Shown: positions 1 to 64,000 of the stretch, in pieces
Layout: every line of letters begins with the position of its first letter
How positions within the stretch are numbered: the first letter of the stretch is position 1
Origin: a virus
IMG/VR virus record: IMGVR_UViG_3300009183_000002
Span: 1 to 64,000 of that record
DNA length: 64,000 nt
Direction: 5' to 3' (one strand)
Translations under genes and position numbers: made by a program
Notes under the pieces: model-generated
What the model was told of the DNA's origin: nothing
Databases searched by the model: none
Seen by the model: the letters and a program-made list of their open reading frames with translations, nothing else

Positions 1-1
1 T

Positions 2-139
2 AAAGAAGCCGTGTTTCAATCTCAATTGGAACGAGATGGTTTAACAAGCACTCCTTATGAAATCAGTGTTACTGTTGCGGCTAGCTCAAATAACCAAGGT
101 GTTTATGCATCGATGGACTGGGAGGAAATATCCAGGTAA
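2..139 (+). CDS. 3' end of a cyanophage (probably structural) protein, truncated by the window
   Basis: Open frame 2 reading KEAVFQSQLERDGLTSTPYEISVTVAASSNNQGVYASMDWEEISR*. Confidence 0.7.
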   Translation, partial: KEAVFQSQLERDGLTSTPYEISVTVAASSNNQGVYASMDWEEISR

Positions 140-53963: not shown

Positions 53964-53990
53964 GCCGGGGGTATTTACCCCGGCTTTTTT
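53964..53990 (+). terminator. intrinsic terminator
   Basis: GCCGGGGGTATTTACCCCGGC followed by TTTTTT. Confidence 0.8.
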
Positions 53991-54386: not shown

Positions 54387-54458
54387 GCGCCTGAAATTGG
54401 GGAAGGATCCTTCGCACGACAGGGTTCAGATAGAACTGTAGTTCGCTTGGCACTGGGG

Positions 54459-54478
54459 TTTTCCACAGGTTTTCCACA
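54459..54478 (+). promoter_or_regulatory. two tandem DnaA-box-consensus sites
   Basis: TTTTCCACA at 54459 and 54470 (matches TTWTNCACA). Confidence 0.45.
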
Positions 54479-54525
54479 GGTAAGCCCAAGCATTCACATC
54501 TAACACTCGCACACATCTCAACACA

Positions 54526-54711
54526 ATGACACGTTCACTCATCGCTTCATACATGTTTGTATTCGGCGTCATCGCAACTGTTGGCACACAGCTCAGCGTA
54601 CAGAAACTTGAGGCTGCAACTGCAACTCAATGTATCCAGCATGACTGGCCAGTGAAAGCTCACCAGGTTCACATGGCTTGGTGTGCAGCCAACAACTATC
54701 GAACTAACTGA
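54526..54711 (+). CDS. small early protein with N-terminal TM/signal
   Basis: ...TQCIQHDWPVKAHQVHMAWCAANNY. Confidence 0.7.
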   Translation: MTRSLIASYMFVFGVIATVGTQLSVQKLEAATATQCIQHDWPVKAHQVHMAWCAANNYRTN

Positions 54712-54794
54712 GTACCAGGCGTGAGCCGAGGGATCGAATCCCTCACTCAGTATTACCCCCAGCGGAGATGGGTACCGCACACACGAGTAACACC

Positions 54795-54950
54795 GTGGCA
54801 ATTCGTAAGAACCTTGCTCAACAATTCGCTAATGCCGCCAAGGCATTGGAGAAAGATCAGAGCAAGGAGAAGCTTGGCTTAGCAATCATGGCTGCTCGCA
54901 TTGGTCTTGCCAATGCAATCATGCCGAAGATTCCTCCAGTCAAGCGCTGA
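54795..54950 (+). CDS. small early protein
   Basis: GTG start after repeat 1: MAIRKNLAQQFANAAKALEKD... Confidence 0.65.
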   Translation: MAIRKNLAQQFANAAKALEKDQSKEKLGLAIMAARIGLANAIMPKIPPVKR

Positions 54951-55034
54951 TTCGTACAAGCGAGTTGGGAGGTGCAAACCCTCCCACAGCTATTGCCTCC
55001 CGCAGAGATAGGCACTGCACAACAGGAGATTCCT

Positions 55035-55259
55035 GTGGACCAAGTCTACGTTCTTATGGGTTCTGTAATCTGTGATTACGACCAAGGAGACACTTGGGTA
55101 CAAGGCGTTTATGCAGATGAAGAATCTGCTTATCGCTACAGGGCTATTCTTGAAACAGAACAGCTCCAAAGAGGGATTGACTTAATTAAGTCAGATCCCA
55201 AAGCGAGCATCACCATTGATCGTCAATGGTCTGTTCGTCCTCATAAGCTAATCCGTTAA
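55035..55259 (+). CDS. small early protein
   Basis: AGGAG SD + GTG; VYVLMG...VQGVYADEESA. Confidence 0.7.
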   Translation: MDQVYVLMGSVICDYDQGDTWVQGVYADEESAYRYRAILETEQLQRGIDLIKSDPKASITIDRQWSVRPHKLIR

Positions 55260-55326
55260 AGCGGGTGACCAGGTGCAAACCCTGGTCTAGCAATTGCCAC
55301 ACACTGAGTGTGGCTCACTCAAGACC

Positions 55327-55482
55327 ATGACAACCACATATCAACAACTCCGTCAGTACTTTACTGAACAAGAGTTGGACAACGCAACAGTTATCACACG
55401 TCATGTGCAACACGATTTTCCGCACATGACATACGCAGAGATTTACATCAACCTTCTGGTTCAGATGATTGCTGAACGTTGA
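55327..55482 (+). CDS. small early protein
   Basis: MTTTYQQLRQYFTEQELD... Confidence 0.65.
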   Translation: MTTTYQQLRQYFTEQELDNATVITRHVQHDFPHMTYAEIYINLLVQMIAER

Positions 55483-55566
55483 GTACCAGGCGTGAGCCGG
55501 GGAATCAAATTCCCCACTCAACTATTGCCTCCCGCAGAGATAGGCACTGCATACATAGAGTTATCC

Positions 55567-55851
55567 ATGGCTATCAACGGTGATCTTGACCTTAGTAAAG
55601 GTTGGATCAAACATGCCAATGTTCCAGGGGGTTACTTCCTGGAATATACGGACGACGTTGTGTATCTCACTATCGTCACAGGCCCTCCAGGTTCTGGACT
55701 GATGGGCATTATTGCCCCAGGAGTAGAGACTACATACGAGGCCTGGCTTCCTGGTTTAGCCAACCCAACAGGTCATCTAACTCTCCAGGAGATACGTGGC
55801 GTCATTCGTTACCTTCATGAGAAGGCAATAGAAGATGCTATGTATGACTGA
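55567..55851 (+). CDS. small early protein
   Basis: MAINGDLDLSKGW...TYEAW...PTGHLTLQEI. Confidence 0.7.
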   Translation: MAINGDLDLSKGWIKHANVPGGYFLEYTDDVVYLTIVTGPPGSGLMGIIAPGVETTYEAWLPGLANPTGHLTLQEIRGVIRYLHEKAIEDAMYD

Positions 55852-55939
55852 GCTGTAGTACTGCACTACAAGGTGTAGGGCTAGGTGCAACTCCTAGCCT
55901 CAGTAATTGCCACACACTGAGTGTGGCTTAACTTAACTC

Positions 55940-56140
55940 ATGTCACTTATCAAGAACGCATACGTATGTGTTGTGAATGGTGAACCAGAACTGTTCCAGA
56001 CGCAACAACAAGCAGAAGATCATGCCATGGAACTTAGCTTCGCATGGTATGACGCACAGCTTGATGTTCCGGCTCCACGACTGGCAGTCATGTCAGTTAC
56101 CAACTGGTTACAGCTTCAATCACAACTAGTTCTTGTCTAA
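55940..56140 (+). CDS. small early protein
   Basis: 66-aa ORF after repeat 5. Confidence 0.65.
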   Translation: MSLIKNAYVCVVNGEPELFQTQQQAEDHAMELSFAWYDAQLDVPAPRLAVMSVTNWLQLQSQLVLV

Positions 56141-56165
56141 CATTTATTAATTTCAATTCAAACCA

Positions 56166-56390
56166 ATGCAAATCTATCAACCCTGCATCGATTCACATGA
56201 CAGAGTTATCTGGAATGGCGGTGATTCTACTCAACTCCATTTCCAATTTGACGATGGTCACTTTGGTGAAACAGAATGGATCGATGAGTACACACGTACT
56301 TTTATGGAATTCCCTACCAGCATGAGTGCCCTTCACGCAGCAATGGTTGACTTGTACAACTATTGTTCTGCTGGTCTACATAACTTCTAA
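56166..56390 (+). CDS. small early protein
   Basis: 74-aa ORF. Confidence 0.65.
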   Translation: MQIYQPCIDSHDRVIWNGGDSTQLHFQFDDGHFGETEWIDEYTRTFMEFPTSMSALHAAMVDLYNYCSAGLHNF

Positions 56391-56477
56391 TTTGATTCAA
56401 ATTTGATGTTTGCCCAGAGGGTTTCGGCCCTTTCTGCAGACTTCATGTCTGCTATCAACTCAACCTAGTTCAATACC

Positions 56478-56735
56478 ATGAACGTTGCACAAGTTGAACA
56501 TCTTCTAATCCACGATGCCCGGCTATTGGCTCGTCGAGACTCCAATGCCCATCTACCTTGTATCGATTGGAACATCGAAGAGAAGCGTCAAGCTGCTCTC
56601 GAATTGTTCTATGAGTTCCAAGATGGCATGGCTAAGTTCGAAGACCTGCTGCCAATCTGTGCCATACTTCAGAAGAAGGTTGACATCAACCGACTAGCAC
56701 TGAAGTGGGAACAGGAGTACGGCATCGAAGACTAA
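56478..56735 (+). CDS. small early protein
   Basis: 85-aa ORF flanked by family-2 repeats. Confidence 0.7.
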   Translation: MNVAQVEHLLIHDARLLARRDSNAHLPCIDWNIEEKRQAALELFYEFQDGMAKFEDLLPICAILQKKVDINRLALKWEQEYGIED

Positions 56736-56832
56736 CTGATGTTTGCCCAGAGGACTCCGGTCCTCTCTGCAGACTTCATTGTCTGCCGTAGATACATATG
56801 TACTACGCCACTAACTCAACTCAGTGTTAACC

Positions 56833-57186
56833 ATGCTTAAAGTCAACGGCACCGGTAAGATTATCCACACTCGTCTCGCCACCTTTGACGACAAAGAGTG
56901 GCTGGAAGTTACTATCGCCTACGAAGATGCCAAGCAAAACAAGCTGCGGGTGGTAGTCACCAATAGCAATGGCTTGCTCTCTGCTGTAAAAGCAGGTGAA
57001 GACCTAGTCAATACCTGGGTCGTCTTCCATGGCGACTTAGCTATCAACCGCGTCCGCTCCCACTACACAGAAGACGGTGTTCATAAAACACTCAAGTGTC
57101 CAGAAATCCGTCTTAACTACGCTTATTTAGAGCGTATGCCAATGAGCAAAACTGTAACATCAGTTGAACAAACTGCAGTTGCTTGA
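56833..57186 (+). CDS. possible OB-fold/SSB-like protein
   Basis: Beta-rich; VVVTNSNGLL...VVFHGDL; fold call is tentative. Confidence 0.55.
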   Translation: MLKVNGTGKIIHTRLATFDDKEWLEVTIAYEDAKQNKLRVVVTNSNGLLSAVKAGEDLVNTWVVFHGDLAINRVRSHYTEDGVHKTLKCPEIRLNYAYLERMPMSKTVTSVEQTAVA

Positions 57187-57289
57187 CGCCTACACTTAAC
57201 CCTTCCCTATGATACGGCATCGTATCGCTCGGTAGGTTTTCTGTAGGCCTCACACCTGAGGTCTACATCAACACTACTAACCTGCCTAC

Positions 57290-57502
57290 GTGAAACACAT
57301 TATCAAACTAGACAAAGGCAAGTACATCCAACTTGATTCTTATGGTGAGCAAACTACTCATCCATTAGAACCATTCATCGTTGGATTCTTTGTCACTGCT
57401 ATCGCCGCAATCACTGTTGGTGCAGTACTTGGTACTGATGTAACCAAGCTTATCCAAATGCCCAACCACTCAACTCAACCAACTCAACCCCTCAAGCCAT
57501 GA
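57290..57502 (+). CDS. small membrane protein
   Basis: MKHIIKLDKGKYIQLDSYG followed by a TM helix. Confidence 0.65.
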   Translation: MKHIIKLDKGKYIQLDSYGEQTTHPLEPFIVGFFVTAIAAITVGAVLGTDVTKLIQMPNHSTQPTQPLKP

Positions 57503-57696
57503 CTAACCTTTCCCCCGCCGCGCAGGCTGTGTTGGATGCCTTCAGTGAACGCTACGAGCTTTGCGGCCCGTTCGATGGCAACTGGCAGGAGCTGTGCCTC
57601 GCCGCCGCCCTTCGCGCTGCTGCGCCAATGATGGAGTGTGTGCAAGATCACCTAAAACTCCTCGCCATCGCCGCCGAACTGGAGGCACAGCCGTGA
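57499..57696 (+). CDS. LSPAAQAVLDA-family small protein, copy 1
   Basis: LSPAAQAVLDA...AAALRA...LLAIAAELEAQP. Confidence 0.75.
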   Translation: MTNLSPAAQAVLDAFSERYELCGPFDGNWQELCLAAALRAAAPMMECVQDHLKLLAIAAELEAQP

Positions 57697-57938
57697 CTGA
57701 CCAATTTCCTGACGCCACGAAAATGGTCCTTTCCCCCGCCGCGCAGGCTGTGTTGGATGCCGCAATGACCACTCCCATAGTTCTTGGTTGCTACACAGCA
57801 ACTCGCAGTCATCAAATTGCCGCCGCCCTTCGCGCTGTTGCAGATCAGGTTGAGCCTGAGGGTGGCACACCTGCTGAGGTGCAGCAAGTGCTTGACAAAC
57901 TTCTTACTATTGCCGCCGAACTAGAGGCACAACCATGA
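57693..57938 (+). CDS. LSPAAQAVLDA-family small protein, copy 2
   Basis: GTGA-coupled; same three conserved blocks. Confidence 0.72.
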   Translation: MTDQFPDATKMVLSPAAQAVLDAAMTTPIVLGCYTATRSHQIAAALRAVADQVEPEGGTPAEVQQVLDKLLTIAAELEAQP

Positions 57939-58183
57939 CTCATTACGTAGCACTTGTCACGGACCTAACCGGTCGCTATGCTAACGTCCTGGTCCAGGCC
58001 AACACCTGGGACCAAGCCATTGACCAGCTCGAAGATGCTGGCTGTGAAGTAATCGAAGATCAATCTGAAGATTACGAAGAGTATGGCATTGGGCTACTCC
58101 CACAACTTGAAGAACTCAAGGGTGTGGACGTCATCCCCATCAATGAGCTAACTACTCATTCAGACTTTGTTGTACACAACTAA
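57935..58183 (+). CDS. acidic small early protein
   Basis: ATGA-coupled; D/E-rich. Confidence 0.7.
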   Translation: MTHYVALVTDLTGRYANVLVQANTWDQAIDQLEDAGCEVIEDQSEDYEEYGIGLLPQLEELKGVDVIPINELTTHSDFVVHN

Positions 58184-58188
58184 TCACA

Positions 58189-58361
58189 TGATGCTTACTG
58201 ATCAACTCGATTTCAACAACCCCGATCATGTCACAGTTTGCTGTAAGAATGATCGACTAACTATCTACATCAGCAACAATAAGTCTTCTGTGCGTTTAAC
58301 TTACGCACTACAAACAGAAGATAGTTGCTCACCCCCACCACCCCCACTGCAGCAGTCGTAA
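58189..58361 (+). CDS. small hypothetical protein
   Basis: MMLTDQLDFNNPDHVTV...; start approximate. Confidence 0.45.
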
Positions 58362-58416
58362 CCACATCAATGGTTTAAGAGTGCCAGGGGGGGGATCTAA
58401 AATCTAATAGTTGAAT

Positions 58417-58443
58417 GGACCTGAGTACGTCCTTAAACTACTC
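58417..58443 (+). ncRNA. family-3 H-type pseudoknot leader
   Basis: GGAC-CTGAGTAC-GTCC-TTAAAC-TACTC; covaries with copies at 62165 and 62615. Confidence 0.65.
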
Positions 58444-58499
58444 GGATTCCTGATAACTGACAGTTATCGGGATTCCAACTATCCCATTGCAACTCAACA

Positions 58500-58646
58500 T
58501 TGACTTACTCACAACCAGAACTTGATCAACTCCAGGACCAAGCCGTTGCTGACTACGTAGACGCAATGGCGGACCTGGCCTACGAAATGGCTAATGCATT
58601 ACGCGAACAATACGAGCCTGACTACTATGAAGACGCAGCAATCTAA
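58500..58646 (+). CDS. 48-aa acidic protein
   Basis: TTG start; MTYSQPELDQLQDQAVADYVDAMADLAYEM...YEPDYYEDAAI*. Confidence 0.55.
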   Translation: MTYSQPELDQLQDQAVADYVDAMADLAYEMANALREQYEPDYYEDAAI

Positions 58647-59067
58647 CTATGACACCGTCACATTAATTGTGGCGGGTGTCTACATCCTATTCACCTTACT
58701 CATCCAAGCAATCACATGGCTCTTACAACGGAACAACAACTCATTGCCTACGCAGTTGGCTACGAACCCCTCACTGGTGACGAAGCTGAACTCCAGTTCG
58801 AACCAGAAGTTAACTACGATCCAAACGAAGGAGGTATCCCCAAGCCCGGTAGTATCTACCGAAACAAGCGTGGAACCTATCGCTACTACTGGGTACCAAG
58901 CGGAGGTAACTACAGTCGTGAAGAACGTAAAGACCTCGAAGGTTGGTACGACATCCCGTGCCTCGAAGACCTCGAAGAGTGGACCTTCGACTCAGTCTGC
59001 TTCACGCCAGGTGAAGACGAGGTCGAACCAGACCATCCAGACAGCTGGATTAGGCTTCTCTACCTAA
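58627..59067 (+). CDS. TM helix + Ser/Thr-rich protein overprinted on the 58716 gene
   Basis: TVTLIVAGVYILFTLLIQAITWLL helix occupies the otherwise empty 58647-58715 gap. Confidence 0.45.
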   Translation: MKTQQSNYDTVTLIVAGVYILFTLLIQAITWLLQRNNNSLPTQLATNPSLVTKLNSSSNQKLTTIQTKEVSPSPVVSTETSVEPIATTGYQAEVTTVVKNVKTSKVGTTSRASKTSKSGPSTQSASRQVKTRSNQTIQTAGLGFST

Positions 59068-59072
59068 TCTAA
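58716..59072 (+). CDS. hypothetical early protein
   Basis: IPCLEDLEEWTFDSVCFTPGEDEVEPDHPDSWIRLL. Confidence 0.7.
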   Translation: MALTTEQQLIAYAVGYEPLTGDEAELQFEPEVNYDPNEGGIPKPGSIYRNKRGTYRYYWVPSGGNYSREERKDLEGWYDIPCLEDLEEWTFDSVCFTPGEDEVEPDHPDSWIRLLYLI

Positions 59073-59527
59073 CGACGCATCATCCGTTGACGCATTGCTG
59101 CAGCAGCAGGATCTAATGTGTCGTAACCACCTCCAGTGGACGCAGGAAATGCCATGTCAGTTCCAAGGCTAGTGACTGCAGCCGCACCTAAGGTAGGCAA
59201 CGAGCCTACTGCACCTGCTGTTGCTAGCCCCGGAGCTGCATAACGCATTCCTTTAGATATCACATTACCTACTGCGTTACCTACTGCATCAATGCCTCTA
59301 CTCCCTGCATAATCAAGTATTAATCCAGCTATTCCACTTTTATTTGCATTAGATGCATTCACTGCTGTGTTCAAAGAATTACCTCGACCAAACATCTTGT
59401 TCAACTGCAAAGCAGATAAACTTTCAAGTGGTTGCCCAGGTAATCTTGATGCATCAAACTCAGCTCCTTCATTAAAAGCTCCAGGATTATTGTTAAATAT
59501 TCCTGCAAACTTACCAGCTAACTCCAT
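59069..59527 (-). CDS. Ala/Gly-rich protein antisense to the early cluster
   Basis: 152-aa ORF with AAAGGA SD; composition like the virion-block proteins. Confidence 0.65.
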   Translation of the reverse strand: MELAGKFAGIFNNNPGAFNEGAEFDASRLPGQPLESLSALQLNKMFGRGNSLNTAVNASNANKSGIAGLILDYAGSRGIDAVGNAVGNVISKGMRYAAPGLATAGAVGSLPTLGAAAVTSLGTDMAFPASTGGGYDTLDPAAAAMRQRMMRR

Positions 59528-59679
59528 TGATCCTTTACTGTTACACCTAGTTTAACTCAGGGGTATTGACAGATAACTACTGTCCACCCCCTGCACCCCC
59601 GTCAAGAGTACCAGGAATACCTTTAATCTCTTAAGGTACTTCCTTCTAACTATCCCCTATCCCCTCACTAACTAATCTC

Positions 59680-59931
59680 ATGACAGTAGCAGACTATCCT
59701 GATGACATCAATGATTACTACAAAGCTAAAGCTAGAGACTTACCTACACGTAACCGTACTACTGTCGATGATCTAATGGATGCATTGGACTATACAGTAA
59801 TCGATGCACTGCACCATGGTGGTTCCAATGATGCAATCGAGGAAGCATTCGATGCAGTAATCAATCATCCAGACAGTACCTGGTCAAGGGATGTCCTTAG
59901 CTATCGCATACGCCAAGTCCATTACAAGTAA
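59680..59931 (+). CDS. small early protein
   Basis: 83-aa ORF with A/C-rich leader. Confidence 0.7.
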   Translation: MTVADYPDDINDYYKAKARDLPTRNRTTVDDLMDALDYTVIDALHHGGSNDAIEEAFDAVINHPDSTWSRDVLSYRIRQVHYK

Positions 59932-59963
59932 CCGAGCAAGTACCGCGCATGCACCGAGCATGT
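59931..59963. repeat. three tandem 11-bp repeats
   Basis: ACCGAGCAAGT ACCGCGCATGC ACCGAGCATGT. Confidence 0.7.
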
Positions 59964-59992
59964 ACTCATACGGCAAGGTTAAGAATAAGTTA

Positions 59993-60245
59993 ATGATGTA
60001 TTGGCTGTTTTGTGTACTCAACTAATACATCAGTCATACCAAGGGGTTAGACCATTTTGTTGACATCAACAAGATGGTTAAGCATGGAGTTGGTTCGCAT
60101 TAGAACCTAAGTTTGGTGCGGCCAGACACTCCATGCATTTCCATTGGCCTGAACAATGGAACCCCTAACGAAACAACCAGTGGCCACTGGGTCTTGCAAG
60201 ACTCAGTCATCGTAACACTTGTTACGTGCCCATGGCCAAGGGTTG
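59993..60245 (+). ncRNA. putative multi-branched structured RNA
   Basis: Nested stems GGGGTT/AACCCC, ACCATTTTGTTGA/TCAACAAGATGGT, GCATGGAGT/ACTCCATGC, TCCATTG/CAATGGA, CAACC/GGTTG, CTGGGTCT/AGACTCAG, CGTAAC/GTTACG. Confidence 0.6.
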
Positions 60246-60251
60246 ACAGCC

Positions 60252-60503
60252 ATGATAGATTACACACTCACTCAACTGAAACTCATGTCCCTAATCAACG
60301 ACGCACCCAAGCCACGCATCCCTGATGCAGTAGATCGCCAACGCCTTGAAGCTATGCAACTTGTTGCGCGGATGAAAGAATCTGCAGATAAGTTTGGTGT
60401 TGGATTCGTCGGTGGCTTTATTAGTCCCGACGGACAAAAGTTTATGATGACCAACATGGACGAAGCTGATACTCAGGCACTACTGCCAGAGGATCTCAAA
60501 TGA
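60252..60503 (+). CDS. hypothetical protein (start may be 60285)
   Basis: RQRLEAMQLVARMKESADKFGVGFVGGFISPDGQKFMMTNM. Confidence 0.7.
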   Translation: MIDYTLTQLKLMSLINDAPKPRIPDAVDRQRLEAMQLVARMKESADKFGVGFVGGFISPDGQKFMMTNMDEADTQALLPEDLK

Positions 60504-60805
60504 ACGACGAGATTGATTACATTCTCGAGACGTTTAACTTTGAACGTGTCCATGTAGCAATGACTGCTCTCGATTGGTGGTGGACTGATCCACATGAAGT
60601 ACCAACAATTGCACGTCTTAAGAAACGTGCACAAATATTGTTAGAGGTTGCATACAAAGAGCACATTACTATTGCTACCGGTGGACTACAAGCTATGTAC
60701 TATCCACCGATCAAAGACTCAGATCTATTAGTAGACTCTGGTCCAATCCTTTCATTAAGCTTTGTGTTAACTGAAACCAACTCTGAGGATTACAACGATG
60801 ACTAA
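60500..60805 (+). CDS. conserved phage protein (FNFERVH...ALDWWW motif)
   Basis: IDYILETFNFERVHVAMTALDWWW...VPTIARLK...ATGGL. Confidence 0.75.
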   Translation: MNDEIDYILETFNFERVHVAMTALDWWWTDPHEVPTIARLKKRAQILLEVAYKEHITIATGGLQAMYYPPIKDSDLLVDSGPILSLSFVLTETNSEDYNDD

Positions 60806-61139
60806 CCAACACCCAATCACCCCACCGCCTGAGCTGATGCAGCAGTGGCGCCATAGTTGGCTTCCCAGTCATGGTGAGTTTGTTGAATACGTTGCCACCC
60901 AAGCCGCCCGCTGGGGCGCCGACCATGAGCTTGAGGCGTGTTGTGAGTACATGCAGCACGAAGACTTCCACGGCTTTGCCACCGAACTCCGCGCCGCCCG
61001 CCGCCCCAAACCTCCGACGCTGAAGAAGCAGGCGCTGACTGCAATGCTTCACTTGCAAAAGGCTGCAGAAACTAATATGGATACCATTGAAGCTGTGCAC
61101 ATTATCTGCCGCGCACTGGAAGCATTACCAAATGACTGA
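60798..61139 (+). CDS. GADxELEACC-family protein, copy 1
   Basis: WGADHELEACC...ELRAARRPKPPTLKKQAL...ICRALEALPND. Confidence 0.75.
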   Translation: MTNQHPITPPPELMQQWRHSWLPSHGEFVEYVATQAARWGADHELEACCEYMQHEDFHGFATELRAARRPKPPTLKKQALTAMLHLQKAAETNMDTIEAVHIICRALEALPND

Positions 61140-61497
61140 CCTTATCCCGACCCCAAATCAACTCCAGTATTGGATAGATAAAATCTGCTACCCCCACGAA
61201 CAAGGAGTTGGTCCTTCACTCAAGGACAAAGAGTTGGCAGCTTTAGCATTCAAAGCTGGCGCCGACCAGGAGCTGGAGGCGTGTTGCCAATACATAAATG
61301 AAGCTAGGTGGTTTGGTAATCCAACTCATCGCAAAGACCCATTGGTTGAACTTCGCGCCGTTCGCCGCCCCAAGCCGCCGAGTTTGAAGGAGCAGGCGTT
61401 GGCATTGGTGAGCCATGACTTCTCAGATCAACCGTGTCTTAGTGAGGAGGGTTACGCCCTTATCCGCCGCGCACTGGAGGCATTGCCCAATGACTAA
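61132..61497 (+). CDS. GADxELEACC-family protein, copy 2
   Basis: AGADQELEACC...ELRAVRRPKPPSLKEQAL...IRRALEALPND. Confidence 0.75.
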   Translation: MTDLIPTPNQLQYWIDKICYPHEQGVGPSLKDKELAALAFKAGADQELEACCQYINEARWFGNPTHRKDPLVELRAVRRPKPPSLKEQALALVSHDFSDQPCLSEEGYALIRRALEALPND

Positions 61498-61687
61498 GAA
61501 ATCTGTAATCAATTTTGATCAAACCATTGCCGGAATTAACATTTCTGAGCATGGAATACGATCTTTTAGCAAATCATTTAAACTTGGACCGTTTCAACTC
61601 ACGTTGAACGCCCGTAACTCTGGTGTCCGTGGATCGATCTCGATCCCTGGCACAGGGTTGTCCAAGCGCAACCTGAAACTTCTCTGA
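61490..61687 (+). CDS. DUF4236-like protein
   Basis: SKSFKLGPFQLTLN...SISIPGTGLS. Confidence 0.65.
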   Translation: MTKKSVINFDQTIAGINISEHGIRSFSKSFKLGPFQLTLNARNSGVRGSISIPGTGLSKRNLKLL

Positions 61688-61697
61688 TCTAACTCAC

Positions 61698-61895
61698 ATG
61701 ACATCAACTCAACTCCACGCCATGATCACACTGATGGATCAATACGGAGGCTCATTTGTATCCGCACTTGCACAAGCATTACGCTATGCAGATCCAACTA
61801 ATCGTCAACGTTTGCTTGATGCATTCCCTGATATCGTTGCCAAGTATGGTCCTGGTACCAGGTTTGCACAAGTCAAACAACCTATCGAGGTCTAA
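61698..61895 (+). CDS. small conserved phage protein
   Basis: YGGSFVSALAQALRYADPTNRQRLLDAFP. Confidence 0.75.
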   Translation: MTSTQLHAMITLMDQYGGSFVSALAQALRYADPTNRQRLLDAFPDIVAKYGPGTRFAQVKQPIEV

Positions 61896-61898
61896 CGC

Positions 61899-62159
61899 AT
61901 GTCAGTCCTAGCTATCCACAGATTACAAATTACAGATGACTATTGCACAGTTGAAGCACTGGTTGAAAACAGTATCCTTGTTTATCCACCATCAAACATC
62001 AGCCCTGCTGAGTTTGATCATGGAGTATGTGAAGCAAGGTTTATTGTGGATACAGAGGAATCAATTCCTGTGGATGAAGATGACTTCTGTAGCTATCTTG
62101 ATTCACTCAATCTGGATTGGCGACTGGTCGAAGTTGACAACTCCGATCTAGACGTGTAA
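61899..62159 (+). CDS. acidic small protein
   Basis: 86 aa, strongly D/E-rich. Confidence 0.7.
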   Translation: MSVLAIHRLQITDDYCTVEALVENSILVYPPSNISPAEFDHGVCEARFIVDTEESIPVDEDDFCSYLDSLNLDWRLVEVDNSDLDV

Positions 62160-62642
62160 CCTACCGTCCTAAGCATGACGTTAAACTGCTTATCAAATCA
62201 CACATCCCTTAACATTTAATCTAATGACTTTCCCTTCTGGTTCTACTATCAACGAATGGTTTCAAAGCGCACACTCTGATGCTCTTGCAGCAGGAGGTAG
62301 TGTATACAACATAAAGAAACATGCTGAAGAACAGCTTGTTAAAACTGTTCTACGTTGGTCATACGCTAGCTTGATTCAAGATTTAGAACAACTTGGTTAC
62401 CGCGACAGGTCAAGGGTTGTTATTCATATACAAGAACTAGCAAACAGTTTGTACAGTACAAACAATGAAGAGTTTACCGATGATTATGAAGATGAAGACA
62501 GCAATGAGTATACAGAAGATAACAATGATCTTGATCAAGTTTTAATGACAAAGGAAGCACTCATCGATTTGCTAAATGAAACTATTAAAACTCTTAGTTA
62601 ATTAAATAACCTACCGTCCTAAGCATGACGTTAAACTGCTTA
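62157..62642 (+). repeat. perfect 36-bp direct repeats (62157-62192, 62607-62642) flanking one gene; family-3 pseudoknot
   Basis: TAACCTACCGTCCTAAGCATGACGTTAAACTGCTTA twice. Confidence 0.88.
62224..62601 (+). CDS. hypothetical protein with acidic tract, enclosed by the direct repeats
   Basis: 125-aa ORF. Confidence 0.7.
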   Translation: MTFPSGSTINEWFQSAHSDALAAGGSVYNIKKHAEEQLVKTVLRWSYASLIQDLEQLGYRDRSRVVIHIQELANSLYSTNNEEFTDDYEDEDSNEYTEDNNDLDQVLMTKEALIDLLNETIKTLS

Positions 62643-62669
62643 ACATTACTCACTCACTACAAACTCACT

Positions 62670-64000
62670 ATGCAATTCCAACTCCCTGAAAACTTACAAG
62701 TCGAGTTACTTGCGTATGACCCAACGCTCAAGCAACTAGCTCGCACTACTAACTCAAAGACTAAATCAGCTAAGCCTAAGTTTCCACTGGGTCAACCCTA
62801 TACTTTTGTACCAGAAGATGCAATCAAAGCATCATTGGTACAAGATGCAATTGACTTGATCAATCCTGAGCCTGTCGAACGTAGGTGGCATGAATTCAAA
62901 CGTGCTGTAGACACAAGTTTTAAAACCGTAAGTATCTTGTATCACTATGAATCAGTATGGTATGCCGCATGGCTACCGCCTAAAGGTAAAGAACAAGACT
63001 ATGTGTATGGCTTTGCCTTTGCATATAAAGATAACAAGACTTCTAGGAATATGATCCCTTATGAATTAAACAGAATACAAGACACACAATTAATTCCACA
63101 TGGCAAATCTAATTTCATTACCTATTCACGTGTTGTAACCAGACAAAATATTGTTGATGGTTATGACAGGCTCATGTCTCTGATACCACAGCTAGCTTGG
63201 AAGAAAGGTGGACAAATACGTGAATTAGTTAAACGCTTCAACGATTCACTAGCAGAAACAATTCCTACATGGAATGATTCTCGTCATGGGATATTTGGAC
63301 GCATCAAGAATTCAAGCTATGTTAAGTTACTTGAGATGGAACGTTACATACCAGAAGAAGACTGGCATACTTGGAAGCCTTCAGTTAATAATGTTTTTGC
63401 AATTATTGATGGCTTAAAAGGTGCCCCGTATGATTACAACTGGGGTTACCACAAACCCATTCGTCACATCATTGACAAACCATTCTTTCGTAAATGGATT
63501 CAAACCAAGTGTGATGAAGTTATACTGCGTCTAAATGATACAGAAAATCAATCAGAGATGGTTGTTAAACATCCATGGAATCAAATCACTGTGTTGTTTG
63601 AAGCCATTGGTTATGTCAATCGTGTATGGCCTGATTGTCCTGTTGATTACTACCAAACACATATCAATAATCTATTAGCTCTTTATAATCCACGCTGGCA
63701 ATTCGAAGGTAACCGCGTAAGTAACTGGTTGAATGAACACATGCCTGTTGCATCCTACTTTCACATAGTAGATAAACATGTTACTCAAGCTCCGGAGTTG
63801 ACTAATGCTTATCGTATGACTAGTACTATCTCTAGTAGCACTGGGCTTACTCAGTATTACTTTACCGAATGGAAAGATACATTGCAAATGCTGCATAAAG
63901 TATTGTGTCACAGAGAAGAGAAGAATATCGAAACACTAACGCCACCAAAGCGTTGGCGACTTACTGAGTTCCATGATTATGTACAAGCAGAAGCATGGAA
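62670..64000 (+). CDS. large protein truncated by the window end; possibly PcfJ-like
   Basis: Frame open from ATG 62670 (MQFQLPENLQVELLAYDP...) to the end (...PKRWRLTEFHDYVQAEAW); not in the ORF track. Confidence 0.75.
   Translation, partial: MQFQLPENLQVELLAYDPTLKQLARTTNSKTKSAKPKFPLGQPYTFVPEDAIKASLVQDAIDLINPEPVERRWHEFKRAVDTSFKTVSILYHYESVWYAAWLPPKGKEQDYVYGFAFAYKDNKTSRNMIPYELNRIQDTQLIPHGKSNFITYSRVVTRQNIVDGYDRLMSLIPQLAWKKGGQIRELVKRFNDSLAETIPTWNDSRHGIFGRIKNSSYVKLLEMERYIPEEDWHTWKPSVNNVFAIIDGLKGAPYDYNWGYHKPIRHIIDKPFFRKWIQTKCDEVILRLNDTENQSEMVVKHPWNQITVLFEAIGYVNRVWPDCPVDYYQTHINNLLALYNPRWQFEGNRVSNWLNEHMPVASYFHIVDKHVTQAPELTNAYRMTSTISSSTGLTQYYFTEWKDTLQMLHKVLCHREEKNIETLTPPKRWRLTEFHDYVQAEAW

Follow-up and report, generated by a model that had tools for sequence, protein, structure and literature searches.

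Background

In the early region of phage T7, RNase III sites split one long transcript into units and leave stabilising hairpins; RNase III requires roughly two helical turns of duplex. T4-type phages carry promoter-early stem-loop (PeSL) cassettes (Arbiol et al. 2010, PMC2839356; Comeau et al. 2014, PMC4122927), in which a strong sigma-70 promoter is combined with a terminator stem-loop, and which work as DNA and as terminators. In plant mitochondria, t-elements, together with the tRNA punctuation of mitochondrial transcripts, set the 5' and 3' ends of mRNAs via RNase P and RNase Z (Forner et al. 2007, PMC1920247). Finally, beny-, cucumo- and other RNA viruses contain the coremin element, or xrRNA-C, and its Watson-Crick variant, xrRNA-WCC (Dilweg et al., PMC6546385, PMC10520033, PMC10321173); the coremin motif is GUCCGAAGACGUUAAACUAC (PMC10520033), and PMC10321173 sets out both the pseudoknot model and the Watson-Crick form.

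The early-gene array

The window analysed here (the whole stretch of 64,000 nucleotides) belongs to a complete 82-kb record with terminal repeats, an S-EIV1-like freshwater (lake) cyanophage with Synechococcus phage S-EIV1 as its nearest named relative. The array of short ORFs punctuated by structured repeats that an earlier note had described in this window is real and consists of 27 ORFs plus one on the opposite strand.

53964..53990, + strand: canonical intrinsic terminator (7 G-C pairs and a T run), just before the array
54526..62601, + strand: the 27 small ORFs of the array, presumably early genes and nearly all lacking a known family
59069-59527, - strand: the single opposite-strand ORF in the array

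The terminator provides a contrast, its T run being found in none of the array hairpins. A repeat family is present in 10 of the 13 array spacers of at least 40 nt (54.5 to 62.7 kb), and two more copy sets lie downstream. Self-BLAST of the whole 82-kb genome detected only 8 non-terminal repeat pairs, 7 of them in the + strand early/middle block, with these intergenic elements accounting for 5 of those 7; the repeat families in the array spacers are not due to chance. Pfam and PHROGs were searched with ten proteins, eight from the array and two from larger genes downstream; only g22 (phrog_32006), the PcfJ-like 570-aa gene and a GP88-like gene downstream gave matches. The earlier note had reported no integrase in the window, and no tyrosine or serine recombinase was found across the whole genome either.

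A tRNA-like junction at the head of the array

Family A is a three-way junction that mimics the acceptor and T-arm of tRNA, is followed by a pseudoknot or a hairpin, and usually encloses the stop codon of the upstream gene.

54707..54780, + strand: Family A copy 1, tRNA-like three-way junction; P1 ACTGAGT/ACTCAGT, in which the upstream gene has its TGA stop; hairpin resembling a T-arm, loop ATCGAAT, then pseudoknot ACCC/GGGT and GCGG/CCGC
54946..55020, + strand: Family A copy 2; P1 GCTG/CAGC with TGA stop, P2 hairpin, 7-bp P3 with loop TGCAAAC, then pseudoknot module GCCT/AGGC and GCAG/CTGC
55022-55037: hairpin after copy 2, in which the AGGAG Shine-Dalgarno pairs with the GTG start
55247..55315, + strand: Family A copy 3; P1 GCTA/TAGC, P2 with the upstream stop in its loop (55257-55259), P3 with loop TGCAAAC, then plain hairpin GCCACAC/GTGTGGC
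55478..55552, + strand: Family A copy 4; P1 GTTGAGT/ACTCAAC with TGA stop, loop ATCAAAT
55847..55928, + strand: Family A copy 5; P1 ACTGA/TCAGT with TGA stop, longer P2, P3 with loop TGCAACT

The left half of copy 4 matches copy 1 and its right half is exactly that of copy 2; this copy is a mosaic of two module types. The right hairpin of copy 5 is identical to that of copy 3, and copy 3 itself recurs in L003 (96% identical), with a g7 homologue immediately after it. Every relative carries 2-5 copies of Family A, invariably at the 5' end of the array. In the alignment of the junction, 86% of the cells are paired and the covariation score is 0.524, compared with 0.194 for shuffled alignments (0 of 500 reach the observed value). 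The T, A and C positions of the T-loop are invariant in all 60 junction copies, P1 and P3 together comprise 11-13 bp in 47 of the 60, and the upstream stop codon starts at a constant P1 column (12-13) in 41 of the 48 copies with a detectable upstream ORF. Models of tRNA fail to recognise the junction, and Rfam has no match for it or for the 28-nt pseudoknot described below.

Hairpins and pseudoknots further down the array

Two other families occupy the more distal spacers, Family B and a 28-nt H-type pseudoknot (Family 3), two copies of which lie within the longer repeat C.

56404..56452, + strand: Family B copy 1, covarying hairpin with closing stem GTTTGC/GCAGAC and alternative partner GTCTGC
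56737..56786, + strand: Family B copy 2
58417..58444, + strand: Family 3 pseudoknot, variant GGAC/GTCC, spacer TTAAACTAC, followed by a 13-bp hairpin
62157..62195, + strand: repeat C copy 1; TAA stop of g26, 5 nt, then the pseudoknot CGTC-C-TAAGCA-T-GACG-TTAAAC-TGCTTA (62165-62192)
62607..62645, + strand: repeat C copy 2, pseudoknot 62615-62642

The two repeat C copies are identical over 36 of 36 nt (62157-62192 and 62607-62642), and copy 2 is the one retained upstream of the 570-aa gene across the lineage. Further pseudoknot copies, overlooked in the earlier note, lie past the window at 68067, 71988 and 72840.

The pseudoknot was found in more than 113 IMG/VR stretches, and in 721 kb its search pattern matched 155 times on the sense strand and 14 times on the antisense strand. 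Paired cells make up 93.4% of the alignment, all 10 pairs have changed on both sides, G.U pairs are many, and the covariation score is 0.52, compared with 0.23 for shuffled alignments (0 of 500 reach it) and 0.07-0.11 for slid controls. Under reciprocal ascertainment, S1 is perfect in 70 of the 73 sites with a perfect S2 (1 of 2 on the reverse strand), and in a separately retrieved set 58 of 80 copies are fully paired where the search pattern had left positions free. Of 101 copies, 58 have a stop triplet 5 nt ahead of the knot, and 80 are followed 15-29 nt later by the start of the next ORF; the leader in between is unstructured and has 5% G. The compensatory substitutions that the earlier note had seen between copies hold across relatives as well, and its reading of the spacers as RNA elements is supported by covariation, strand specificity and sense-strand G.U pairs in about 40 relatives and the separate 80-copy set.

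Gene cassettes bounded by repeat copies

As had been claimed, copies of one family bracket three segments of the array.

55327..55851, + strand: two-gene block g4, g5, with same-type Family A modules at both sides
56478..56735, + strand: gene g8, between two Family B copies, an arrangement shared with L003 and L012
62224..62601, + strand: cassette gene g27 (125 aa), between the repeat C copies
62670..64000, + strand: 570-aa gene with a PcfJ-like C-terminus, ending at 64382 beyond the window; conserved, anchors the cassette slot
64367-64397 and 65571-65601: identical copies of the Family D repeat, bracketing the gene just past the window

Family D was not noticed in the earlier note. For the 570-aa gene, a start at 62625 was rejected, the true start being the ATG at 62670.

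Whole genes with a repeat copy on either side are present in some related phages and missing from others, and one copy remains at the empty site. In junction alignments, g27 is absent from L002, L003 and S-EIV1, where a single repeat copy remains; no relative of g27 was found in any locus compared. The Family D-bracketed gene is likewise missing in relatives that keep one repeat copy at the junction, and it occurs in three different contexts in three phages. Exact repeat-to-repeat junctions were found in independent cases from other lineages too, the same knot-bounded slot is filled by unrelated genes in WIN, L017, L026, L029, L041 and L025/L046, and L003 lacks the segment 55316-56154. The repeat copies are the only extended near-identical DNA within the array.

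Across 114 indels, which are not phylogenetically independent, same-family elements occur at both ends in 11, compared with 3.0 expected (about 3.7-fold, p = 2e-4), and a junction repeat of at least 20 nt is present in 21, at least 7 of these being the 28-nt pseudoknot. The proposal that the spacers serve as recombination homologies is supported in that the repeat C and Family D junctions run exactly from repeat to repeat; however, repeat-flanked indels are only 11-21 of the 114 (10-18%), junction homology is below 10 nt in most (79 of 114), and breakpoints overall show no enrichment at the elements (45 of 228 compared with 37 expected, p = 0.15, with the same phylogenetic non-independence). 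The variable genes g11/g12, g18 and g21-23 of the window have their breakpoints at ordinary gene boundaries.

Comparison with the described systems

The PeSL analogy drawn in the earlier note applies to the shuffling but not to the parts. As with PeSLs, short repeated regulatory cassettes separate dispensable genes of no known family in a plastic region; close relatives differ by insertion, deletion or replacement, the crossover falling within the repeat, and no dedicated recombinase is involved. Unlike PeSLs, the phage elements have no promoter consensus or T run and consist of RNA folds, a tRNA mimic and pseudoknots, that covary on the sense strand, and the repeats are used by only a minority of the indels. 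Lacking promoter, U-tract terminator and recombinase, the array would appear, on this analogy, to work like T4 PeSL shuffling without being a PeSL system.

The pseudoknot shares with coremin an identical hp1 stem (CGUC:GACG), a pyrimidine (C in 70 of 73 phage copies) in the bridging position that follows the stem, the loop-closing C-G pair, the spacer UUAAACU(A/G)C and the H-type topology, and its loop-to-spacer Watson-Crick stem corresponds to that of xrRNA-WCC. In contrast to coremin, its loop of 7-8 nt falls outside the YGAD/YGNNAD consensus, stem 2 comprises 6 bp, and the hp2 hairpin, needed for Xrn1 resistance, is missing in 96 of 100 copies; the element is intergenic within an mRNA, 5 nt past a stop codon, the host is a bacterium with RNase J rather than Xrn1, and nuclease resistance is putative. 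Like t-elements, the Family A mimic is a tRNA-like structure without decoding function between coding regions of polycistronic transcripts, but it is no more than a minihelix of acceptor and T-arm plus a small third hairpin, in most copies it overlaps the stop codon of the gene upstream, and its processing is putative. The T7 RNase III sites are similar in being repeated structured RNA elements that separate early genes of one long transcript; RNase III is, however, an unlikely reader of the phage elements because their stems are only 4-7 bp, in junctions and knots.

Alternative explanations

The pseudoknots, and perhaps other modules too, might be translational operators through which a phage RNA-binding protein, for example a single-strand-binding protein, represses a middle-gene regulon by nucleating on the knot and spreading along the unstructured leader; T4 gp32 acts in this manner on its own mRNA. 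A knot with a conserved leader does precede the ssb gene (71988) in the window genome and most relatives, several copies per genome stand before replication-type genes, and the 15-29-nt leader is suitably G-poor and unstructured. We nevertheless consider this explanation unlikely: the motif also follows head, holin and other genes in phages unrelated to this one (Staphylococcus Phietavirus, Geobacillus GR1, Nostoc NMeng1), which argues against a lineage-specific repressor, the same core motif functions protein-free in plant viruses (PMC6546385, PMC10520033), and the scan of the eight array products identified no candidate RNA-binding protein in the array.

Still less probable is that the repeats are true PeSL-type DNA cassettes, each an early promoter with a terminator, whose hairpins matter solely as terminators. 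Conserved -35/-10 elements are found neither within nor beside the repeats, a promoter scan returned no site in the repeats and overall fewer than shuffled sequence gives, TAnnnT shows no enrichment ahead of the 101 knots, information content does not extend beyond the 28 nt, and no array hairpin resembles the terminator at 53964 in its T run; moreover, covariation connects bases on both sides of any putative start site, and G.U pairs occur on one strand only. These observations outweigh the PeSL-like intergenic position, flanking genes without known families and occurrence at indel junctions (PMC2839356), along with a sigma-70-like site (58375-58403) shortly before the knot at 58417 and the sequence TTGACA-17-TAACCT ahead of repeat C copy 1. 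The perfect 31-36-nt direct repeats around single genes and the repeated filling of one slot could also be footprints of a dedicated mobile element (integron attC-like sites, target-site duplications or homing), but this seems very improbable, given that the repeat is a pre-existing conserved element, single at empty sites, that the same cassette gene is found elsewhere without a flanking repeat, that the cassette genes encode neither nuclease nor transposase domains, and that the complete genome lacks tyrosine and serine recombinases.

A model for the spacers

We regard as reasonably likely, taken as a whole, the explanation that the spacers are cis-acting sense-strand RNA elements whose copies let homologous recombination shuffle genes. 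The elements are structured, conserved, strand-specific and placed at a fixed position relative to stop codons; since the folded elements are conserved and gene differences between relatives cut exactly there, the spacers probably both organise the message and act as gene swap points. Each half of this dual role, proposed in the earlier note, is supported, but the majority of indels are not repeat-flanked.

We infer that the RNA function is processing or a decay barrier. Long polycistronic transcripts of the early/middle genes would carry the elements on their sense strand. At the array head, each gene ends within the tRNA-like junction, its acceptor-like stem stacked on the T-arm-like hairpin (about 12 bp), which may be cut endonucleolytically by a host tRNA-processing or decay nuclease, and the small pseudoknot or hairpin directly after it may cap the new 5' end. 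An RNase P cut on the 5' side of P1 would cost the upstream stop codon, a point against this part of the model. Further down, the 28-nt knot between stop and start, ahead of the G-poor unstructured leader, may form a mechanical barrier against RNase J or ribosomes arriving from the 5' side and in this way insulate each translation unit; a flaviviral xrRNA stops bacterial RNase J1 in vitro (PMC5760640). The fixed spacing between stop codon and knot could equally fit a role in translation termination or reinitiation.

General homologous recombination between copies may insert, delete and move genes, no dedicated recombinase being encoded. If this reading of the recombination is true, an incoming gene carries its own RNA punctuation.

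Genomic context of the array

The source record of the window is rated complete and represents a single virus of 82,433 bp, with an exact terminal direct repeat of 123 bp (window positions 1-123 are identical to genome positions 82311-82433). The genome carries genes for the terminase, the major head protein, tail fibres, a primase and a family-A DNA polymerase; among named phages it is closest to S-EIV1, a freshwater Synechococcus phage, with 79% amino-acid identity in a virion protein. The minus-strand structural genes extend to 53.6 kb and are followed by one small plus-strand gene that ends in a predicted canonical terminator at 53964, ~570 nt of non-coding DNA and a plus-strand block from 54526 to ~78.7 kb; it is on the basis of this layout that the array genes are presumed to be early.

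The organization of the array is as claimed in the earlier note: the ~30 short ORFs described there correspond to 27 small plus-strand ORFs (g1 to g27) and one on the minus strand, and 10 of the 13 spacers of at least 40 nt hold a member of a repeat family (family A in five, family B in two and the family 3 pseudoknot, hereafter the knot, in three). Self-comparison of the whole genome detected eight non-terminal repeat pairs, seven of them in the plus-strand block, and five of these seven are the array spacers. Outside the stretch covered by the earlier note, a direct-repeat pair (family D) flanks one gene just past the window, and more knots are located downstream, at 68067, 71988 and 72840. 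Among the 10 proteins scanned against Pfam and PHROGs, the eight from the array yielded no Pfam family and one PHROG of unknown function.

Features of the array region (genome coordinates; strand; description)
54453-54481; non-coding; tandem direct repeat GGTTTTCCACAGGTTTTCCACAGG, just 5' of the first array gene
54526-62601; plus; small ORFs g1 to g27
59069-59527; minus; ORF of 152 aa with no family, the sole minus-strand ORF of the array
59932-60252; non-coding; gene-free spacer of 320 nt
62157-62195 and 62607-62645; direct-repeat pair C, each copy containing a knot
62224-62601; plus; g27, flanked by the C copies
62670-64382; plus; conserved gene of 570 aa (true start at 62670) with a PcfJ-like C-terminus
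64367-64397 and 65571-65601; identical direct-repeat pair D
64454-65570; plus; D-bracketed gene (positions 454-1570 of locus L049), probably starting at 64454 (371 aa) rather than at 64590

Megablast detected no match between the array and named phages, and relatives were therefore sought by protein search: alignment of the 570-aa protein yielded 38 IMG/VR loci, each taken with up to 10 kb of upstream sequence. L002 and L003 are two close relatives, and S-EIV1, which carries families A and 3, is L001; the L002 contig begins within the array, and the comparison with it covers the downstream part of the array.

The tandem repeat at 54453-54481 is 96% conserved in L003, within surrounding DNA that is not conserved, and may be an operator or a promoter-associated site. 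The minus-strand ORF is missing from both L002 and L003, which points to an inverted insertion, without a flanking repeat. The 320-nt spacer has a folding energy of -125.8 kcal/mol and no match in Rfam; identity over its core (60076-60287), at 99% with L002 and 94% with L003, exceeds that of the flanking genes, and a segment at 60081-60132 shares 85% with S-EIV1; a 143-nt indel at 59932-60076 separates the relatives. This spacer is a candidate non-coding RNA. The tandem paralogue pairs g11/g12 (57499-57938) and g22/g23 (60798-61497) are mosaics in which identical DNA blocks alternate with unrelated segments; the first pair is missing altogether from L003, which has only one g22/23, and the g22 family (phrog_32006) reaches four copies in some relatives, such as L026.

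A conserved pseudoknot between stop and start codons

Family 3 is a 28-nt H-type pseudoknot that consists of the following elements.

Elements of the knot
Stem 1: CGTC/GACG, with variants GGAC/GTCC, TGTC/GACA and GGTC/GACC
Bridging base: single C
Stem 2: 6 bp, freely variable (TGAGCA/TGCTCA, TGGACA/TGTCCA, TGGGCA/TGCCCA, TAAGCA/TGCTTA and others)
Junction base: single T
Loop 3: TTAAAC

In 721 kb of sequence, the search pattern matched 155 times on the array strand and 14 times on the other strand. A perfect in-register stem 2 is present at 73 of the 564 [CT]TAAAC sites, 70 of which have a perfect stem 1 too; on the opposite strand, used as a control, the corresponding counts are 2 and 1. Across 107 distinct copies, 93.4% of the cells are paired and two-sided changes occur at all 10 pairs, with a covariation score of 0.52 compared to 0.23 in shuffles (0 of 500 as high) and 0.07 to 0.11 with the partners slid. 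G.U pairs, which are A.C mismatches on the other strand, are common, indicating that the fold belongs to the sense RNA. The invariance of TAAAC in this alignment is imposed by the search pattern; the T that follows is nearly invariant, and the preceding base, for which the pattern allowed C or T, is mostly T. An exact-pattern scan of IMG/VR, a retrieval separate from that alignment, identified the knot in at least 113 stretches; of 80 copies taken from it, 58 are completely paired at the positions that the pattern did not fix.

Sequence conservation ends at the borders of the 28 nt, and the position of the knot relative to the genes is constrained: a stop triplet is located exactly 5 nt 5' of the knot in 58 of 101 copies, and the next ORF starts 15-29 nt 3' of it in 80 of 101. 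The leader on the 3' side is unstructured and contains 5% G.

The closest structural counterpart is the coremin motif (xrRNA-C) of plant viruses, GUCCGAAGACGUUAAACUAC, in which an hp1 stem CGUC:GACG and a conserved spacer are followed by a second hairpin, hp2, which the motif requires (PMC6546385, PMC10520033). The hp1 stem of coremin is 3-5 bp long with a pyrimidine-purine loop-closing pair (PMC6546385), its hp1 loop consensus is YGAD or YGNNAD (PMC10520033), and both a pseudoknot model and a Watson-Crick variant, in which loop GGAG pairs with CUCA, have been put forward (PMC10321173). The CGUC:GACG stem of the phage knot is exactly that of BNYVV, the loop-closing pair is C-G in 98 of 107 copies, the bridging base is a pyrimidine (C in 70 of 73), and the stem is followed by UUAAACU(A/G)C; the conserved coremin spacer UUAAACUAC is thereby represented, and the copy at 58417 carries it exactly. 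In contrast, the knot loop is 7-8 nt long, typically C-UGAGCA-U, and departs from YGAD/YGNNAD, agreeing in the first Y and the last two bases (A-D) and differing at the position-2 G; stem 2 has 6 bp; and hp2, required for Xrn1 resistance, has no regular equivalent, with a hairpin starting within 8 nt 3' of the knot in only 4 of 100 copies and a mean folding energy of -0.9 kcal/mol for the next 32 nt. Because of the loop length, the 6-bp stem 2 and the lack of hp2, the knot is, judging by its sequence and predicted fold, coremin-like and not a member of the coremin class.

Coremin-like knots are also found in intergenic regions of unrelated phages: in 85 Staphylococcus phage records, after a minor head protein gene (e.g. 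phage 3MRA, L163); in Geobacillus phage GR1 (L165), after the holin gene and with AAAAAC as loop 3; and in Nostoc phage NMeng1 (L164), immediately 5' of an annotated pseudo-tRNA (in all three loci at ~401-432). Our literature search found no description of xrRNA or coremin-like elements in phages. Given that a flaviviral xrRNA stops bacterial RNase J1 in vitro (PMC5760640), it is plausible, by analogy, that the knot could act as a barrier against 5'-3' decay in a host with RNase J.

A tRNA-like junction at the 5' end of the array

A survey with a profile built from the five window copies detected 2-5 copies of family A per relative, all of which lie at the array's 5' end; in the window genome, the family occurs nowhere else. 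In the left module, three helices meet in a perfect three-way junction: P1 has 4-7 bp, P2 is a small hairpin, and the 5-7-bp stem of P3 carries a 7-nt loop that reads TGCAAAC in 30 of 60 copies and has the canonical form TTCAAGT or TTCGATT in a few. None of the 60 copies varies in the columns equivalent to tRNA U54, A58 and C61. As RNAalifold recovered only 3 pairs from the mixed alignment, we drew up the structure manually and checked it against controls: 86% of the cells are paired, with a covariation score of 0.524, whereas shuffles give 0.194 (0 of 500 as high) and slid partners 0.07 to 0.12. The compensatory substitutions claimed in the earlier note are borne out, in the relatives too.

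The acceptor-type stem stacked on a T-arm, ~12 bp in total, and the 7-nt T-loop with U54, A58 and the G53-C61 closing pair resemble tRNAs and t-elements. Of the 60 copies, 47 have a combined P1 and P3 length of 11-13 bp and 26 of exactly 12 bp, split as 5+7 in one subtype and as 7+5 in another; an acceptor plus T-arm of ~12 bp is the length measured by tRNA-processing enzymes. Unlike true tRNAs, family A lacks the D-arm and the anticodon arm, both of which are replaced by a single 5-bp hairpin, and neither ARAGORN nor Rfam, even at E up to 10, reported a tRNA at these sites. The stop codon starts at the same P1 column in 41 of the 48 copies with a detectable upstream ORF; copy 3 of the window deviates, with the stop within the P2 loop.

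The right module starts 3-4 nt after P1 and is either a plain covarying hairpin or a second small pseudoknot (GCCY/RGGC with GCGG/CCGC, GCAG/CTGC, GTGG/CCAC or GAGG/CCTC; 37 clean copies). The modules combine: copy 4 of the window joins a left module of the copy 1 type to a right module of the copy 2 type. Several pseudoknot-type modules, in the window (55022-55037) and in relatives, are followed by a small covarying hairpin in which the Shine-Dalgarno GGAG pairs with the start codon (CAGGAGATTCCTGTG, CACGGAGAACACCGTG, CCATGGAGAGATCCATG), an arrangement that resembles a translational lock. On the RNA side, the nearest analogues of the array elements are coremin/xrRNA-C and plant mitochondrial t-elements (PMC1920247).

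Family B is restricted to the closest relatives: L003 and L012 both carry two copies, which flank the same gene (g8 in the window). Family D, a small knot-like motif abutting a stop codon plus a long covarying hairpin, is present after the 570-aa gene in six lineages.

Probable gene exchange at the repeats

The genome encodes neither a tyrosine nor a serine recombinase (neither PF00589 nor PF00239 turned up anywhere in the complete sequence, and control genomes were positive); the lack of an integrase reported for the window thus extends to the whole virus, which differs from integron-type cassette systems in having no dedicated site-specific recombinase. At the C and D pairs, junctions between related phages run from repeat to repeat. 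In L002 and L003, the end of g26 is joined through one C copy to the start of the 570-aa gene, where the window has C, g27 and C; in L002, the end of the 570-aa gene is joined through one D copy to the next gene, where the window genome has D, a gene and D. S-EIV1 likewise lacks g27 and the D-bracketed gene at these junctions. The simplest reading of these alignments is that both genes were probably gained by insertion in the lineage of the window. The D-bracketed gene occurs in three contexts in three phages, two of them without clear flanking repeats: its homologues in L053 and L123 occupy differing slots, and the one in L123 is flanked by the homologues of g20 and g24, the place of g21-23 in the window.

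In 77 related locus pairs, we found 114 semi-unique indels of at least 150 nt. A junction repeat of at least 20 nt was found at 21 of the 114 indels, and at least 7 of the 21 involve the knot before the 570-aa gene in different lineages; in this slot, the window, L017, L026, L029, L041 and L025/L046 carry unique genes that are unrelated to one another. Elements of the same family occupy both ends of 11 indels, compared to 3.0 expected (p = 2e-4). Junction homology is shorter than 10 nt at 79 of the 114 indels, and in the window, the variation at g11/g12, g18 and g21-23 has its breakpoints at plain gene boundaries. The proposal of the earlier note that the repeats serve as recombination homologies is supported by the repeat-to-repeat junctions at C and D, whereas breakpoints overall are not enriched at the elements (45 of 228, 37 expected). 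With few repeat-flanked indels and unenriched breakpoints, the repeats are, as far as these comparisons indicate, real but minority exchange points.

DNA contigs from four freshwater runs include relatives from other lakes that skip the single genes g3, g7 and g9, as well as g22-23. No repeat-to-repeat circle junction was found in these assembled contigs; a back-joint from 56786 to 56472 was rejected as such because it represents the normal B-to-g8 order of a relative.

Alternative readings of the elements

The analogy with the PeSL cassettes of T4-type phages, in which a promoter and a stem-loop accompany modular shuffling (PMC2839356, PMC4122927), is partly sustained. As in PeSL regions, the genes next to the repeats belong to no known family and lie in a plastic region, and where close relatives differ by an indel, the crossover can lie in a repeat. 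Both defining parts, however, are missing: no early promoter of the sigma-70 kind, with -35/-10 boxes and AT-rich DNA upstream of them, lies in the repeats, and the predicted hairpins of the array lack the T run of a terminator stem-loop. Thus, the array resembles PeSL in shuffling and fails PeSL membership on two defining parts. A reading as sigma-70 promoters or intrinsic terminators was rejected on the same grounds: a scan found 11 promoter sites compared to 17.3 in shuffles, none within the repeats; TAnnnT is not enriched upstream of 101 knots; and the array hairpins are stable but have no T run after them, the one canonical terminator predicted lying outside the array, at 53964.

Rfam gave no hit at gathering thresholds across the window and, over the array, none of relevance at E up to 10, which rules out riboswitches (preQ1-I, for example) and self-cleaving ribozymes of known type; none of the repeat elements is in Rfam 15. 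A hammerhead-like reading of the CTGA junction was rejected for want of a GAAA or CUGAUGA core, and RNase III sites were rejected because the stems are too short. Readthrough or frameshifting at the stop codon 5 nt before the knot was set aside, given that all frames soon stop or lead nowhere conserved and that there is no slippery site.

A possible RNA punctuation of the array

Conserved sense-strand RNA folds keep a fixed place with respect to the stop and start codons, promoters and terminators are absent from these folds, and repeat-to-repeat junctions distinguish related phages; the present analysis adds evidence, at the level of junctions, that genes are exchanged at the elements, and counts how often. 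Tentatively, and with considerable doubt, we suggest that tailed phages of RNase J-bearing hosts (cyanobacteria, Staphylococcus and Geobacillus) employ a protein-free RNA punctuation code, in which a coremin-type knot blocks nucleases and ribosomes from the 5' side, a mimic of the tRNA acceptor and T-arm recruits host tRNA-processing enzymes, and the same modules are integrase-free exchange sites, the fold being either ancient or convergent. For the array itself, we consider it fairly likely that long polycistronic transcripts span it and are cut at the tRNA mimic of family A, that the module following the mimic caps the new 5' end, that the knot acts as a mechanical barrier, and that gene exchange proceeds by homologous recombination between repeat copies.

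Through the 28-nt knot, DNA phages are connected with the coremin family of exonuclease-resistant RNAs from plant and other RNA viruses, the structure of which, to our knowledge, has yet to be solved; phages offer hundreds of natural, covarying knots as a ready mutational data set for this family. If the punctuation code is real, a fold known only from RNA viruses of eukaryotes would be ancient or convergent in DNA phages, and a new gene would arrive already equipped for expression. The punctuation code would also provide a testable account of how ~27 tiny genes, with no recognisable promoters or terminators between them, are yet expressed as separate units, and a route for such arrays to acquire accessory genes without any recombinase. 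Anti-defence and host-takeover functions usually reside among accessory genes. The tRNA mimic that encloses a stop codon would then be a bacterial-virus counterpart of mitochondrial tRNA punctuation.
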